DNA from: Naegleria gruberi | Lineage: Eukaryota | DNA: 64,000 nt | Strand: one strand, 5' to 3' | Assembly: GCA_000004985.1 (NCBI GenBank) | Contig: GG738879.1 | Part shown: positions 23,017 through 40,736 of the stretch, piece after piece | How the letters are laid out: every line of letters begins with the position of its first letter | Position numbering within the stretch: position 1 is the first letter of the stretch | Made by a program: the position numbers and the translations under genes | The notes under the pieces: generated by a model | The model's input: only the letters and a program-made list of their open reading frames with translations | Told to the model about the DNA's origin: nothing | Databases searched by the model: none

Positions 23017-23363
23017 ATGTCCAAGAATGGTCTTTCTATTTTATTGGTGGAAATTTGTTCTTTTATGGAGTTTTGAATGCAGGCTATTGGTAAGGGAGAA
23101 TTTGTTGATGAGATAGATATTTTTCAAATGAATTATTGGTGAATTATTTACAGAATATTTAGAATGTTGTTAGGTTGTGTGGAAGGATAAATATTAACTG
23201 TAATACGATGTTGAAGCCTTAATGAGTTGGAATGATTTTAAGGAAAATATCGAGATGTAACCTTCATACCAAAAATCGATAAATAATGTTGAGTAATAAG
23301 AATACATCACTCACTGAAAAAACCAAAGATGTTTTATATTTATTTTACAGAGACAAAAAGGTG

Positions 23364-23434
23364 TAGGAAGACAGGGAATCGAACCCTGATCTTAGGAACC
23401 ACAATCCCATGTTCTACCACTGAACTATCTCCCT
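23364..23434 (-). tRNA. tRNA-His (anticodon GUG), 71 nt, discriminator A73, position 1 is A (A1:U72).
   Basis: Minus-strand sequence: AGGGAGA-TA-GTTC-AGTGGTA-GAAC-A-TGGGA-TTGTGGT-TCCTA-AGAT-CAGGG-TTCGATT-CCCTG-TCTTCCT-A. A and B boxes are present. A T5 terminator follows immediately downstream. Confidence 0.85.
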
Positions 23435-28741: not shown

Positions 28742-28814
28742 CGCCCACCGTGGGGGTCGAACCCACGACCACAAGGTTAAGAGCCTTGCGCTCTACCGAC
28801 TGAGCTAGACGGGC
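28742..28814 (-). tRNA. tRNA-Lys (anticodon CUU), 73 nt.
   Basis: Minus-strand sequence: GCCCGTC-TA-GCTC-AGTCGGTA-GAGC-G-CAAGG-CTCTTAA-CCTTG-TGGTC-GTGGG-TTCGACC-CCCAC-GGTGGGC-G. It is near-identical in body to metazoan tRNA-Lys-CTT. A T-run lies downstream. Confidence 0.9.
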
Positions 28815-28959
28815 TACATATCACACTCTAAAAATCTCAATAAAAAATTATTGAGCTTTAATGATTCTCATTATCTTGGTATTCTTTGTGTTTGGTTATA
28901 ACCGTGATTTAATAATAGAATATTAAATAATCAAAGAAATTTTCCTTAATTTATTCATG

Positions 28960-29230
28960 TCAGATGACATGCTGCTATTTCGCTCTCTCGGTTAGTTCAG
29001 AGTGGATTCTTCATCGTTACAATATCAACCTCGTCCAATCAGCAGGCGAGTGTACGGCTTTATTATTGGCCAAGAAACAACGCCTCCCTGGTGCGGTTGC
29101 TTTATTGGTAATCAAAACGCGAGTAAACACAACGCTCAATGTTTTTCTGCAGAATTTTAATTGAAAACCGTCTCAAAAAAATCAAAGCTAGTCTCCTTCT
29201 CGGCCGCTTTACTTTCTTGACGTTTCCGTT
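28960..29230 (+). promoter_or_regulatory. GC-rich island with three CCAAT/ATTGG boxes; probable promoter or structured leader of the AdoMetDC gene.
   Basis: Local GC is far above the surrounding intergenic DNA (ggcgagtgtacggc, cgcctccctggtgcggttgc). CCAAT sits at 29015-29019 and inverted ATTGG at 29055-29059 and 29094-29098. The track ORF 28964-29164 has atypical codon usage and is probably non-coding. Confidence 0.3.
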
Positions 29231-29578
29231 TATCGACAACATCATTACTTCTTGCTATTTTGAAAAGCTTCCACTTTTCAAGTACATCATCTGATAAAAG
29301 TTACTTTATGCAATTTGCTGAACAGCAACCTATAAAAGAAAACCGTAGGCAAAACAAAGAATTATTGTTTATCTTAAAAAGCAATGTAAGTACCACACTT
29401 ATTGTTTGTGGTATATATATGATTTCTGTTTTTTATGTTGCTCCGAATATCATGTGATGATGAAATAACGGTTTTGGAATATATTTATCTCTCTAGGCCA
29501 TCCTCCACCCATCCTAGCACTGAATGCGACCATTGTCAAGAATCTGTTGCTGCTGAAGTAGAACATGTCGCTCAAGAA

Positions 29579-30820
29579 ATGACCCACGTTAATGGTAAAC
29601 CAATTCTTGTTAACTATGCCGAAAAGCATGTTAAACACGTTGATTGTGAATGTTGTGCTGAAGCTGGATTCGAAGGTCCAGAGAAGAGATTAGAATTAGA
29701 TTTCCGTCCTATTGCTAGTGACTTGCCAATTTATCAACAATATAAGGATAAGCATAGAGATGGTTCTGAAGAAGATGACATTTCAAACTTCTACAACTTG
29801 ATGAACGTTACTGATGAAACTTGGCAATCCATGTTGGACTTGGCTTGTTGTAGAATTCTTTCCAAGAAGACTAACGAACATTTTGTTTCTTATGTTTTGA
29901 GTGAATCTAGCTTGTTTGTTTTTAAGAGAAAACTTGTCATCAAGACTTGTGGTACCACCACATTGTTGGGTATTTTGAAGAAGTTGAAGGAAATTGCTGC
30001 CACTCAAGGTTTGGAAGCTGAATTGGTTATTTTCAGTAGAAAGAATTATGTCTTCCCACATAGACAACCACATTACCACTCCTCTTTCGAAGAAGAATTG
30101 AAATACTTGACTGATGATTTCCCAGGTGGTGAAGGCCACGTTGTCGGTTCAGTATTGTCTGACCATTGGTATATTTACATTTGTGATATGCAAGGTGTTG
30201 ATGATCAAATTACAAAGGATCCTGACCAAACATTGGAAGTTTTGATGCACGATTTGGATCCTGCTGTTATGAGACAATTTATGGAAGAAGCTAGAAAGGA
30301 AAGAGCTCCTGGTGTTACTATCGAACAACAATCTGGTATTGATAAATTGTTGCCAGGTTCCGAAATTGATTCCTTCGAATTTGATCCATGTGGTTACAGT
30401 ATGAACGGTTTATTGGGTAAGACTTATTGGACTATTCACATTACTCCAGAAGATAGCTGCTCATTTGTCAGCTTTGAAACTAATGTTAAGACATCCAAGA
30501 TTGAAAATTACTCTGAACTCATTGAAAGAGTTATTCATACTTTCAGACCAGGTCGTTTCACTGTTACTTTGTTTGCTGATGACCACTGGGATATTCAACA
30601 TGAACTCCACAGAACTCCAAGCAAGCAATGTTTGTCAGACGAACACACCACTCTCTTGGACCAAGAATCCTTCCAAATCCACAATTCCAACTTGATGAAG
30701 ACTTACAGTGCTTTCACTAATTTGGCTCTCGGTGATGAATACAAATTGAAGAGTAAGACTTTCTACGAATTCACTGGTGGTTACAATTTGACTTTCACTA
30801 ACTTTGCCAAGATTAAGTAA
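29579..30820 (+). CDS. S-adenosylmethionine decarboxylase proenzyme (AdoMetDC), about 413 aa.
   Basis: Motifs present are FEGPEKRLELDF, the cleavage/pyruvoyl site YVLSESSLFVF, KTCGTT and FDPCGYSMNG. The first in-frame ATG is at 29579. An in-frame ATG-less extension reaches back to 29435. Confidence 0.8.
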   Translation: MTHVNGKPILVNYAEKHVKHVDCECCAEAGFEGPEKRLELDFRPIASDLPIYQQYKDKHRDGSEEDDISNFYNLMNVTDETWQSMLDLACCRILSKKTNEHFVSYVLSESSLFVFKRKLVIKTCGTTTLLGILKKLKEIAATQGLEAELVIFSRKNYVFPHRQPHYHSSFEEELKYLTDDFPGGEGHVVGSVLSDHWYIYICDMQGVDDQITKDPDQTLEVLMHDLDPAVMRQFMEEARKERAPGVTIEQQSGIDKLLPGSEIDSFEFDPCGYSMNGLLGKTYWTIHITPEDSCSFVSFETNVKTSKIENYSELIERVIHTFRPGRFTVTLFADDHWDIQHELHRTPSKQCLSDEHTTLLDQESFQIHNSNLMKTYSAFTNLALGDEYKLKSKTFYEFTGGYNLTFTNFAKIK

Positions 30821-31046
30821 GTGAGATAAAATTTGGCAACTATTGTTGTTTTTGCTAAGATTTCATCTCTCTTGCACTGTTATTCAGTGTTGCGCGTGCC
30901 ATAAACCCTCATCACTTATGTGATGACAAGCTCAACAATAAAAACAAGTTTTCTTAAATTATATTTGATAAACTTGATATCGCGCTCAGTGAGATCATTT
31001 GAATTCATTAGAACGGCATTATCTTTTATTATTTATGGCAAGGTCC

Positions 31047-33326
31047 TTATTCACTAGTTTTGGTTTTGTACTCTTTAAGTAGATCGTAACTATCTGATTT
31101 TAAATTTACAGCTACATGTACAGTGGCAAGTTCAAATAATTCCTCAATAATTGCCATCTCCGATGAACCAGAAACATCTTCTGTTTTCCATTTAGAAAAC
31201 AGATTCTTCCACTGAGCCAAAACCTCACATAATTTTTCTTCTGCAAACTTCTTCAATCCAAATAACATGTACAAATCACTGACAACAAAGCATTCAATCA
31301 ATGCCTCACTAGGTATTGGATTTCTTTCAAATACAGAGGTTCCACTGTACATGTATTGATTAATAATCCAAAGGGTTGTTGCGGAAATATCTTGAACAAC
31401 GAATTCATCCATATTGGTAGAATTATTATGAGATAATGATTCATATTCCAAAACCTTTCGTAAATATTCACTTCTGCATGCTAAAATACATCTGTGAGAA
31501 GGAATTCCACTTTCTTCCTTAATTGTGGTTAAAACTTTGTTATAGTGTACATTCTTACTAGATGCAATTGCTTCATCCACAATATTTCCATAGGATTGTA
31601 ATTGAATGTCGTAATGTTGATCTAAATTCAAGTGCTGATTTGAAAAGTATGCCTTAAAATCAGCATTAATGGGGGAAATTGTCTTATTGTAAGATAATGA
31701 TCTGATGTATGCCTTCTTATAATTCTCAAATTGGTTTTGTGAACCGTATGAACCTCGCACGTGGAGGGTGAATAATATCTTGTCAGTATCGTCAAATAGG
31801 CAAGAATATGCTTGAGAAACACTTGAACTGAGCCCAGAGTTCTTATATTGAGGTACAATAAGGCGAAGGGATTTTTTGGTTTCTTCATTATGAATAAAAA
31901 TACTGAATGAGTGTAAAGAGTCACACATTTCGTCTTCCTTCTTCTTGATTTCATTTTGTTGTTCTTGTATACCCAAACTGGAAGGTACTAATTCATTCAA
32001 ATATTCAAAGTCAGATTGATATTTCTTAATATTTCCACAATATAATACTTGGATAAATTTAACAAAGGCAAGAGTGTTTCTTGGATGGTGATCTCCTCTC
32101 AGAATATAATATCCAGGTCCATTATCGTTATCTTCTTCGACGAGTCCTGTTTGTGGATTCCATTTCAAAACGTTGGCTGTGTGAAGGAATTTAGAGCCAG
32201 TTCTTGCTCTAATGACAGGATAGTGAGCATGAATATCGAAATCTTCAACAGATAAACGTAGTTTCGACCCAGTTATATACAGATTAAATTCATTAGGATT
32301 CCAATCTAGTAAATCTGGAAGGTCCAGAATTGCAAAATGAATATCACTTGTAAATCTGCCAAATTTTTCATTCATTCCAATAGTTGGAAACCATTTTGGA
32401 TTTGCAGTAATAAGTAATTTTTCAAAATCGTCTTCAAGAGCATACTCTTCAGTGAGAGCGTTCAGAATTTCTCCAATATGATACAATATACTAGTGACAG
32501 TTTCACTCACAACAGAGTCTACTTTATACCACTCTGTTTTCTGACCTTCATTCTTGAGGAACTTGTCAATATATTGTGAATAAAATTGAGAAATATTCCA
32601 CAATGTTCCAAACATGCCAGATTGTTTCAAAATTTCTCTTCCTCTCGAATGATCTGTTATTTTGAAAAGTATAAAAGTTAGAGCCAAGAGTGAATTTTCA
32701 ATAAATTTGCTACACTGAGCATTCAATGACTTGTCAATAATATGAGGAATAATAAACACTAAAGTACAACAAATGTCACAAGCATGAGTCAACCCTCCCA
32801 ACTTGTATAACATTGCTCTAATATCATAAGTTGTAATTTGATTACTGATAGCAGAGAGAACATTCTGAATATCCTCAAATAACTGAGCATTTTGATGAAC
32901 AATATTCACATCAACCTCCAACTCTGTTACAAAACTCTCCAATTCAAACAATTTACAAAGATTTCCATAATATTCTTGCAATAATTTACACTTCTTCTTC
33001 ATTCCCTCATCTGGATCAATATAGACCAATCTCAAATAGTAGGCCTCACCTAATTCCATCATTGAGCTATTAGAACAACCAACTGTCTCTAACAATTTTT
33101 GAGGAGACATTCTAGATAACACCTCAATCGGTTGATGACTCAAGGTAGAGGCACTCATATTATTGACATCAGCATTTGTACTATTATAGTTGGTAGAAGA
33201 ATTGTTACTATTACTAATAGTAGTGGTAGTGGATGATCCACCACCTGATCCTTTGCCACCTCCACCACTATTTCGGAGATGTTTTGGTAGGTGATATTGT
33301 CCTCCTCCTCCCTTCTTCTTTGTCAT
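31047..33326 (-). CDS. BTB/POZ-domain protein (759 aa) with an N-terminal Gly/Ser/Thr/Asn low-complexity region and a large central domain of unknown function.
   Basis: ATG at 33326. The C-terminal BTB-like region is HRCILACRSEYLRKVLE...MDEFVVQDISATTLWIINQYMYSG. Confidence 0.65.
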   Translation of the reverse strand: MTKKKGGGGQYHLPKHLRNSGGGGKGSGGGSSTTTTISNSNNSSTNYNSTNADVNNMSASTLSHQPIEVLSRMSPQKLLETVGCSNSSMMELGEAYYLRLVYIDPDEGMKKKCKLLQEYYGNLCKLFELESFVTELEVDVNIVHQNAQLFEDIQNVLSAISNQITTYDIRAMLYKLGGLTHACDICCTLVFIIPHIIDKSLNAQCSKFIENSLLALTFILFKITDHSRGREILKQSGMFGTLWNISQFYSQYIDKFLKNEGQKTEWYKVDSVVSETVTSILYHIGEILNALTEEYALEDDFEKLLITANPKWFPTIGMNEKFGRFTSDIHFAILDLPDLLDWNPNEFNLYITGSKLRLSVEDFDIHAHYPVIRARTGSKFLHTANVLKWNPQTGLVEEDNDNGPGYYILRGDHHPRNTLAFVKFIQVLYCGNIKKYQSDFEYLNELVPSSLGIQEQQNEIKKKEDEMCDSLHSFSIFIHNEETKKSLRLIVPQYKNSGLSSSVSQAYSCLFDDTDKILFTLHVRGSYGSQNQFENYKKAYIRSLSYNKTISPINADFKAYFSNQHLNLDQHYDIQLQSYGNIVDEAIASSKNVHYNKVLTTIKEESGIPSHRCILACRSEYLRKVLEYESLSHNNSTNMDEFVVQDISATTLWIINQYMYSGTSVFERNPIPSEALIECFVVSDLYMLFGLKKFAEEKLCEVLAQWKNLFSKWKTEDVSGSSEMAIIEELFELATVHVAVNLKSDSYDLLKEYKTKTSE

Positions 33327-39125: not shown

Positions 39126-39197
39126 GTGCGCTTAGCTCAGAGGAAGAGCATCGGACTTCGAATCCGAGGGTCGTGGGTTCGAACCCCATAGTGCATA
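39126..39197 (+). tRNA. tRNA-Arg (anticodon UCG), copy 1.
   Basis: Sequence: GTGCGCT-TA-GCTC-AGAGGAA-GAGC-A-TCGGA-CTTCGAA-TCCGA-GGGTC-GTGGG-TTCGAAC-CCCAT-AGTGCAT-A. The acceptor has 5 Watson-Crick and 2 G:U pairs. The B box is GGTTCGAACC. A T5 terminator lies 6 nt downstream. Confidence 0.8.
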
Positions 39198-40664: not shown

Positions 40665-40736
40665 TACAGACAATGGGGCTCGAACCCACGACCCTCGGAT
40701 TCGAAGTCCGATGCTCTTCCTCTGAGCTATGCCTGC
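40665..40736 (-). tRNA. tRNA-Arg (anticodon UCG), copy 2 (different acceptor stem).
   Basis: Minus-strand sequence: GCAGGCA-TA-GCTC-AGAGGAA-GAGC-A-TCGGA-CTTCGAA-TCCGA-GGGTC-GTGGG-TTCGAGC-CCCAT-TGTCTGT-A. A T7 terminator lies downstream. Confidence 0.8.

Follow-up and report, generated by a model that had tools for sequence, protein, structure and literature searches.

The gene for S-adenosylmethionine decarboxylase (AdoMetDC) of Naegleria gruberi raises two connected questions, viz. where its translation begins and what is done by the short open reading frame (ORF) that lies in its 5' leader. The gene is located on the plus strand of the 64,000-nucleotide (nt) stretch of contig GG738879.1 (GenBank assembly GCA_000004985.1) that is analyzed in the present work; this stretch is referred to below as the window and its positions are used throughout. 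A preliminary description of this DNA, made from its letters alone, had placed the main AUG at 29579 and had recognized ahead of it an upstream ORF (uORF) that is interrupted by an intron. Our analyses indicate that this uORF and its intron are conserved in Heterolobosea, and that the same intron splits the start codon of AdoMetDC, which comes into being by splicing. With somewhat better than even confidence, we favor the interpretation that the element is a leaky-scanned and probably polyamine-responsive arrest-peptide uORF, which overlaps an AdoMetDC start that is made by splicing.

A start codon assembled by splicing

The ORF downstream of the leader is identified as AdoMetDC by its match to the Pfam family PF01536 (SAM_decarbox, E 1.8e-106), and homologues in Naegleria and Willaertia, which are its best protein matches, show 97–70% identity. 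Read from the ATG at 29579–29581, this ORF codes for 413 amino acids (aa) and is identical to the GenBank model XP_002675188.1 / NAEGRDRAFT_69585 (P0121); it extends on the plus strand from 29579 to 30821, where it ends with a TAA stop (30819–30821). The leader upstream of the uORF, which contains no ATG, covers at minimum positions 29186–29307 of the plus strand, the transcript contigs of two close relatives (L002 and L001) beginning at the equivalents of 29186 and ~29193, respectively. The uORF is opened by the ATG at 29308, as was described earlier, and its exon-1 part comprises 26 codons (MQFAEQQPIKENRRQNKELLFILKSN; 29308–29385, plus strand). It is followed on the same strand by a spliceosomal intron of 111 nt (29386–29496), which has the GTAAGT donor and CTCTAG acceptor that had been recognized previously and which falls between uORF codons 26 and 27. 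The exon-2 part (29497–29517, plus strand) consists of AILHPS and a stop codon (GCC ATC CTC CAC CCA TCC TAG) and overlaps the main ORF in another frame. The spliced uORF, MQFAEQQPIKENRRQNKELLFILKSN/AILHPS-stop, is 32 codons long with its TAG at 29515–29517, and in unspliced RNA the frame runs for 49 codons, in agreement with the preliminary description.

Close relatives show the splice junction 29385/29497 at exactly this place in five independent transcript contigs (L001, L002, L009, L010, and L011), which were found by exact-protein look-up and of which L009, L010, and L011 represent three different sequencing runs. The junction reads ...AGCAAT/GCCATCCTCCACCCATCCTAGCAC..., and in L002 it reads instead ...AGCTAT/GTCATCAACC.... 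Contig L001 carries a protein (P0001) that is 97% identical to the window protein over their shared 413 residues, and the protein of L002 is 89% identical. Transcripts that begin downstream of 29497 had been named earlier as evidence that would speak against such a leader; those of the relatives begin at or upstream of the equivalent of 29186–29193 and include the uORF, with a distance of at least 122 nt between the 5' end and the uORF. The spliced contigs L001, L002, and L010 have the AUG of the uORF as their first AUG; L011, which is truncated at its 5' end, contains it too, and the one earlier ATG in L009 lies within adapter sequence at the 5' end of the contig.

Removal of the intron brings A29384 and T29385, the last two bases of exon 1, in front of G29497 and thereby produces an ATG in the AdoMetDC frame. 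As judged from the spliced transcripts and the proteins called on them, the true start of AdoMetDC is this AT/G (29384–29385 plus 29497, plus strand) and not the ATG at 29579, which codes for the internal residue Met29. The proteins called on the contigs of the relatives begin with MPSSTHPSTE...AAEVEHVAQEMTHVNGK or with MSSTNHPSSE..., and these correspond to the extension that is open in the window with a methionine placed in front. Within the window, the third base of the start codon and codons 2–28 (PSSTHPSTECDHCQESVAAEVEHVAQE) occupy positions 29497–29578 of the plus strand, a homologous in-frame tract is found in P0001–P0004 and P0123–P0129, and the full product after splicing is 441 aa in length.

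The split AT/G is favored over 29579 because of four properties. Methionine is not maintained at the position of Met29 beyond the group of N. gruberi: L002, L003, and N. fowleri carry V, Q, or S there, and in N. fowleri the next methionine is found only beyond the conserved FEGPEK motif. The His/Cys-rich extension is kept in frame throughout the genus, its insertions and deletions being multiples of three codons in size. Position -3 of the junction AUG is occupied by a purine. Finally, the deposited AdoMetDC models of the three Naegleria species have three different and non-homologous N-termini, and the split AT/G is the only start that is common to all of them. The N. gruberi model starts at the internal Met29, that of N. 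fowleri at an ATG within a 510-nt intron (L004, 3001), and that of N. lovaniensis at an intronic ATG (L005, 3001) from which it is read through the acceptor; the intron-split start codon thus appears to have defeated the gene predictors. The N-terminal tract of the Naegleria proteins (P0001–P0004 and P0123–P0129), which is His/Cys-rich and highly variable in length (e.g., HHHHHHHH in P0002), precedes a conserved NGKPILVNY segment; the Willaertia protein is without it.

These results also change the meaning of several features that had been described in the leader. The stop of the spliced uORF does lie 61 nt before 29579, but because 29579 is not the main AUG the uORF in fact overlaps the true start. 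The ATG-TAA at 29384–29389 is present in the sequence; it is, however, not a minimal uORF but the split start read into the GTAAGT donor, and it is absent from all of the spliced transcripts. The main frame had been considered to be an AUG-less extension of 48 codons. It is indeed open, but over 52 codons upstream of 29579, and it contains an in-frame intronic ATG (29435–29437, plus strand) as well as, in the mRNA, the ATG of the junction, so that it represents ordinary N-terminal coding sequence. The intronic ATG, which is located 48 codons upstream of 29579 in a poor context (uuuuuuAUGu), is usable on unspliced RNA only and is the source of a 461-aa automatic call (P0122).

Conservation of the uORF in Heterolobosea

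The preliminary description had made the conservation of the uORF and of its splice sites in relatives a measure of its reading, and both are conserved, the uORF peptide and the intron position out to relatives with only 49% AdoMetDC identity. The uORF is MIIVVEQQPIRENRRQNKEFLFILNNN/AILEPA-stop with an intron of 510 nt in N. fowleri (L004), MLVVEQQPIRENRRQNKEFLFILNNN/AILEPA-stop with an intron of 411 nt in N. lovaniensis (L005), MHFVANQQPIRENRKQRKELLFILSNN/AKEPG-stop with an intron of 50 nt in Willaertia magna (L006), and MCFVNKDNRPLSSFEFFILSIN/NKEPG-stop with an intron of 58 nt in a heterolobosean whose AdoMetDC shows 49% identity (L012). The intron interrupts the same uORF codon in all four of them, and the Willaertia junction likewise forms AT/G, followed by MQKNQANT.... 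The L012 locus has an unsplit main ATG, located 2 nt after the uORF stop; the same type is represented in spliced form by the metatranscript contigs L014 and L015, and uORFs of this type terminate 1–5 nt ahead of the main AUG. Acrasis kona (L013) and two relatives of it (L023 and L070) have a uORF (MHSEVENQLGLSSLTRNVLSRG/IIIKKPR-stop) that overlaps the main AUG by 38 nt and whose intron lies 7 codons before the uORF stop. No match to Rfam was obtained for the intron, and the three Naegleria introns are without a convincing common block.

An alignment of 10 uORFs reveals a peptide core, E-[LF]-[LF]-F-I-L, and an end of the form P-x-stop. In comparisons of Naegleria with Willaertia by the Nei-Gojobori method, the ratio of nonsynonymous to synonymous substitution rates (dN/dS) is 0.12–0.18, with the synonymous sites saturated (proportion of synonymous differences, pS, ~0.7). 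The corresponding values are 0.38 for N. gruberi vs. N. fowleri and 0.25–0.39 for comparisons with L012, and these low ratios indicate that selection acts on the uORF peptide.

Willaertia (L006, 4178–4235) possesses two candidate acceptors that are 7 nt apart. Use of the upstream acceptor, as in the second annotated isoform (P0133), gives the ...AKEPG-stop end of the uORF together with the AT/G start, and use of the downstream acceptor, as in the model KAL9658453.1 (P0005), fuses MHFVANQQPIRENRKQRKELLFILSNN in frame to AdoMetDC.

Start and termination signals

The contexts in which the uORF begins and ends are highly uniform. A T is present at both -3 and -1 of the uORF AUG in all 19 of the heterolobosean-type copies, and in N. 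gruberi (uacuuuAUGc) all three positions from -3 to -1 are T. Among the other 20 long ORFs of the window, whose consensus is AAAAAAATG, A occupies position -3 in 16, position -2 in 18, and position -1 in 14. The invariant T at -3, set against this A-rich norm, indicates that the uORF start is kept weak.

At the other end, the penultimate residue is proline in every one of the 19 copies (HPS, QPS, EPA, QPA, EPG, KPR, KPP, or QPN before the stop), and it is encoded by CCA in 17 of them. The last sense codon is variable (UCC, GCC, GGC, GGG, or CGC). The stop is UAG or UAA and is followed by C in 16/19 copies, including L012, L014, and L015, which have no overlapping coding frame that could act as a constraint. 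The N. gruberi uORF conforms to this pattern, with a penultimate CCA proline and UAG followed by C. A C after the stop codon constitutes the least efficient termination context in eukaryotes.

Proposed mechanism

The main AUG at the junction is located 76 nt downstream of the uORF AUG, and the uORF stop lies 21–23 nt past the A of the main AUG, which results in an overlap of 23 nt between two different frames. As the uORF ends inside the main ORF, a ribosome that translates it cannot reinitiate at the main AUG. Removal of the intron at once completes the 32-codon uORF and assembles the AT/G of the 441-aa AdoMetDC. We propose that ribosomes leaking past the weak AUG of the uORF would then start at the main AUG, and those that use the uORF AUG would be lost to the main ORF. 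Most likely, the nascent peptide and its P-x-stop end in the weak UAG-C context would slow or arrest termination. A ribosome arrested at the uORF stop would have its P site at +18 to +20 from the A of the main AUG and its trailing edge at about +6, i.e., beside the main AUG, and scanning subunits, whose leading edge is ~15 nt past the P site, would then be unable to place the main AUG in their P site. By analogy with the AdoMetDC uORFs of plants and mammals, high spermidine or spermine may strengthen the arrest and so exert negative feedback on polyamine synthesis. Host gene, leakiness of the start, conservation of the peptide, and Pro-x-stop end are all shared with those uORFs, and it is from them that we infer the same regulatory logic, with repression, stalling, and a polyamine response as probable properties.

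A number of considerations weigh against this interpretation. The evidence for splicing is derived from transcripts of relatives and not from strain NEG-M, the closest of these coding for proteins with ~97% identity in the 413 residues that they have in common with it. For the window vs. L002, a comparison inside the N. gruberi group, dN/dS is ~1, on very few changes. A lineage represented by L003 (1–84) and L007 (1–235), from the source organisms of the runs SRR25443667 and ERR2815274, whose AdoMetDC is ~85% identical to that of the window, has lost the uORF by a change of its ATG to ATT, an in-frame TAA five codons later, and a 4-nt deletion that shifts the remainder, leaving a 232-nt leader without an AUG; the uORF is thus dispensable in at least one lineage. 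By eye, the uORF peptide shows no evident similarity beyond P-x-stop to the AdoMetDC uORF peptides of plants and animals, and the mechanism is shared with those uORFs by way of analogy. The footprint geometry set out above uses the general dimensions of ribosomes.

Alternative explanations

Among the rival explanations the one that survives best, which we nevertheless regard as unlikely, is that the uORF is constitutive and blind to metabolites, diverting a fixed share of ribosomes, causing decay of the mRNA, or acting through a peptide after its release, in each case without polyamine sensing. The overlap with the main AUG is repressive by itself and makes stalling unnecessary, and the L003/L007 lineage has lost its uORF without an obvious replacement. 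However, uORFs that act purely by position do not keep their peptide, and here dN/dS is 0.12–0.38 across genera. The penultimate proline and the UAG-C end are retained even in L012, L014, and L015, where there is no overlap, and the host is the polyamine-pathway gene in which arrest uORFs that respond to polyamines are on record from two other kingdoms.

It is very improbable that the main AUG is nonetheless 29579, with a uORF that ends 61 nt upstream, access by reinitiation or leaky scanning, and an extension that is untranslated or initiated at a non-AUG codon. This AUG is the GenBank start (P0121) and has a good context (caagaaAUGa), and it could serve in the N. gruberi group as a minor secondary start after translation of the uORF. 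It is, however, preceded in every spliced transcript by the in-frame junction ATG with its purine at -3, and the other residues (V, Q, or S) that L002, L003, and N. fowleri carry in place of Met29, together with the genus-wide maintenance of the reading frame of the extension, are difficult to reconcile with it.

We attach a slighter probability still to the possibility that the upstream peptide is the N-terminus of AdoMetDC itself, joined to it by an alternative 3' splice site or by an antizyme-like +1 shift at UCC-UAG. The Willaertia model KAL9658453.1 does join MHFVANQQPIRENRKQRKELLFILSNN in frame by means of the acceptor 7 nt further downstream, and in N. gruberi the main frame is offset by +1 from that of the uORF. 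The antizyme shift site is UCC-UGA, which UCC-UAG of N. gruberi resembles. As regards splicing, however, a reading of the N. gruberi sequence finds no AG in 29435–29579 that would put exon 1 in the main frame, five of five transcripts use the out-of-frame junction, and the Willaertia acceptor that keeps the ...KEPG-stop end also makes AT/G and is used by isoform P0133. As regards frameshifting, L012, L014, and L015 keep the C-terminus and the stop although their uORF ends before the main AUG and a shift there would be without effect, the shift codon varies (GCC, GGC, or GGG elsewhere), and a polyamine-stimulated shift into AdoMetDC would amount to positive rather than negative feedback.

For spe2 of Schizosaccharomyces pombe, interactions of spermidine with the 5' untranslated region (UTR) are said to regulate translation. 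The least probable explanation of all, that a structured spermidine-binding 5' UTR is the functional element and the ORF is incidental to it, can point to a small conserved hairpin at 29260–29281, but this hairpin is weak (-6.6 kcal/mol, z -1.6), neither leader nor intron has a match in Rfam, and the changes seen in the uORF core cluster at synonymous sites (for Naegleria vs. Willaertia they include GAA/GAG, AAC/AAT, CGT/AGA, TTG/CTC, TTT/TTC, and ATC/ATT), which preserves the peptide and not RNA pairing.

Comparison with known uORFs and a survey of AdoMetDC leaders

The assignment made in the preliminary description, that of an intron-containing AdoMetDC-leader uORF of a known class, is borne out by the PF01536 host, the penultimate proline, and the conservation of the uORF. 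A penultimate proline is nearly universal in AdoMetDC uORFs, being found in all but those of vertebrates and sea squirts (Ivanov et al., 2010; PMC2811004), and Heterolobosea, which belong to Discoba, are not on the published list of lineages that possess such uORFs. The closest likeness is to the 'small uORF' of plants (48–55 codons, ending in ...PS-stop), with which the Naegleria uORF shares the host gene, a single leader uORF with a conserved peptide, and the penultimate proline, the N. gruberi copy ending in PS-stop as well; peptide-dependent arrest at the stop would, by analogy, be expected of both. In contrast to the plant class, the Naegleria peptide is similar only in its P-x-stop end, the heterolobosean uORF overlaps the main AUG or ends 1–5 nt before it (L012 type) rather than well upstream, and it is interrupted by a conserved intron. 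No counterpart of the plant 'tiny' uORF of 2–3 codons was found, as there is no other AUG upstream of 29308 in the window leader, nor one in the leaders of L001 and L002.

The MAGDIS uORF of mammals resides in the same gene and is likewise recognized leakily, and the mammalian ribosome pauses at its termination in a polyamine-dependent manner, which blocks access to the start. It differs in having six codons, a cap-proximal position (14 nt), an end in D-I-S without proline, and a location far upstream of the main AUG, whereas the uORF of N. gruberi, with 32 codons and 122 nt or more between it and the transcript 5' end, terminates in P-S; it is therefore not a cap-proximal hexapeptide of the type that ends in D-I-S.

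The uORF that overlaps the start of ATF4 (uORF2) provides another example of a uORF extending into a main ORF. A comparable arrangement is that of vertebrate SSAT, whose overlapping uORF is named in PMC2811004. In these genes as in Naegleria, the uORF terminates within the main ORF but in a different frame, so that its translation excludes initiation of the main ORF and expression needs bypass of the uORF AUG. Unlike in the SSAT and ATF4 type, the Naegleria peptide is itself conserved and has an arrest-type C-terminus, and bypass would occur by leaky scanning rather than by delayed reinitiation. Antizyme, also of the polyamine pathway, resembles Naegleria in that a short ORF (ORF1) overlaps a +1-frame ORF (ORF2), and N. 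gruberi has UCC before the stop. The Naegleria downstream ORF has its own AUG, however, the shift codon is not conserved, the uORF end also occurs without overlap, and the direction of regulation would be wrong. Frameshifting of the antizyme type was considered as a class for this element and rejected, given the junction AUG of the main ORF, the varying last codon, and the L012-type loci without overlap.

A metagenome scan with the window protein alone yielded no relatives. A profile-guided scan of metagenome and metatranscriptome contigs of the Joint Genome Institute (JGI) identified 80 AdoMetDC loci with 37–49% identity, no Naegleria among them, and for each locus the uORF nearest to the main ATG was classified. 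In 52 of the 80 leaders this uORF ends in ...DTG[IYF]S-stop or similar, mostly 9–73 nt before the main AUG, and these loci are closest to dictyostelid references. The preliminary description had suggested a comparison of the uORF peptide across dictyostelids; N. gruberi is a heterolobosean and not a dictyostelid, and the one dictyostelid-like leader (L022, 79% identical to Dictyostelium AdoMetDC) has a uORF of a different class, ...FYADTGIS-stop. The ...DTG[IYF]S-stop ending, which is a feature of Amoebozoa-like and not of heterolobosean leaders, resembles the MAGDIS-stop terminus of vertebrates. Penultimate-proline uORFs account for 10 of the 80, nine of these being closest to heterolobosean references. 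Two oomycete-like loci (L027, 173–275; L028, 1425–1496) have a uORF that ends in ...LRHFPHNGSYR-stop and overlaps the main AUG by 17 nt, which has the appearance of a third conserved class. Leaders of this kind are thus very widespread and occur in several versions, each specific to a lineage, of which the heterolobosean element is one.

Heterolobosea, as members of Discoba, are far removed from plants, animals, and fungi; the position of the uORF intron is common to Naegleria, Willaertia, and L012, and the Acrasis intron is similarly placed. From these observations one may speculate, with a good deal less than even confidence and indeed as something of a long shot, that the module of weak AUG, arrest peptide, and Pro-x-stop in AdoMetDC leaders is ancestral rather than repeatedly invented, the splice-made start beside the arrested ribosome being a twist that was added in Naegleria and Willaertia. 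On this speculative reading, only spliced mRNA would make the enzyme, and the choice of splice site, e.g., of the alternative acceptor 7 nt away in Willaertia, could switch between a repressed mRNA and one that codes for a fusion of the uORF peptide with AdoMetDC.

Other features of the locus

The hairpin in the leader (UUGAAAAG-CUUCCA-CUUUUCAA; 29260–29281, plus strand), whose minimum free energy is the -6.6 kcal/mol cited above, is A/U-rich, of doubtful significance, and situated 27 nt upstream of the uORF AUG. The same stem occurs in L002 (z -4.0) and L007, and in L010 with a G.U change, whereas a search for a clear and stable counterpart in N. fowleri and Willaertia gave none (z -0.18 and -0.59). 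It was rejected as a candidate regulator on account of its weakness and lack of significance, and a search of the leader against Rfam gave no match. On the minus strand, nothing beyond short chance ORFs was found in 28820–29600.

The window has a base composition of 30–42% G+C and contains genes for tRNA-His (GTG; 23363–23434), tRNA-Lys (CTT; 28742–28814), and, on opposite strands from each other, two tRNA-Arg (TCG; 39126–39197 and 40665–40736). The tRNA-Lys gene precedes the AdoMetDC leader by ~370 nt and is carried by the other strand. Downstream of AdoMetDC, also on the opposite strand, a BCD1/zf-HIT gene is present in N. fowleri (L004, 5356–7107), N. lovaniensis (L005, 4681–6288), and Willaertia (L006, 6465–7679). 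This synteny was not seen in the window, whose first downstream ORF (31047–33326, minus strand) codes for a BTB-domain protein.

Significance

The occurrence of AdoMetDC uORFs is extended by the present work to Heterolobosea, a deep-branching group that includes the lethal pathogen N. fowleri; in full-text literature searches, no description of such a uORF from Naegleria or from Heterolobosea came to light. Elements of this kind are well known, and what is unusual here is the anatomy, viz. the overlap with the main start, the conserved intron within the uORF, and a start codon that is absent until the intron has been spliced out. The analysis corrects three deposited gene models, among which the N. 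gruberi model XP_002675188.1 is without the first 28 residues of the protein. The overlapping, adjacent, and lost copies of the uORF provide a natural series for dissecting the arrest signal, and this series points to a small set of invariants, viz. a uORF AUG with T at -3, a peptide core with FIL, an end of the form CCA-NNN-UAG-C, and a distance of no more than a few dozen nt between the uORF stop and the main AUG.

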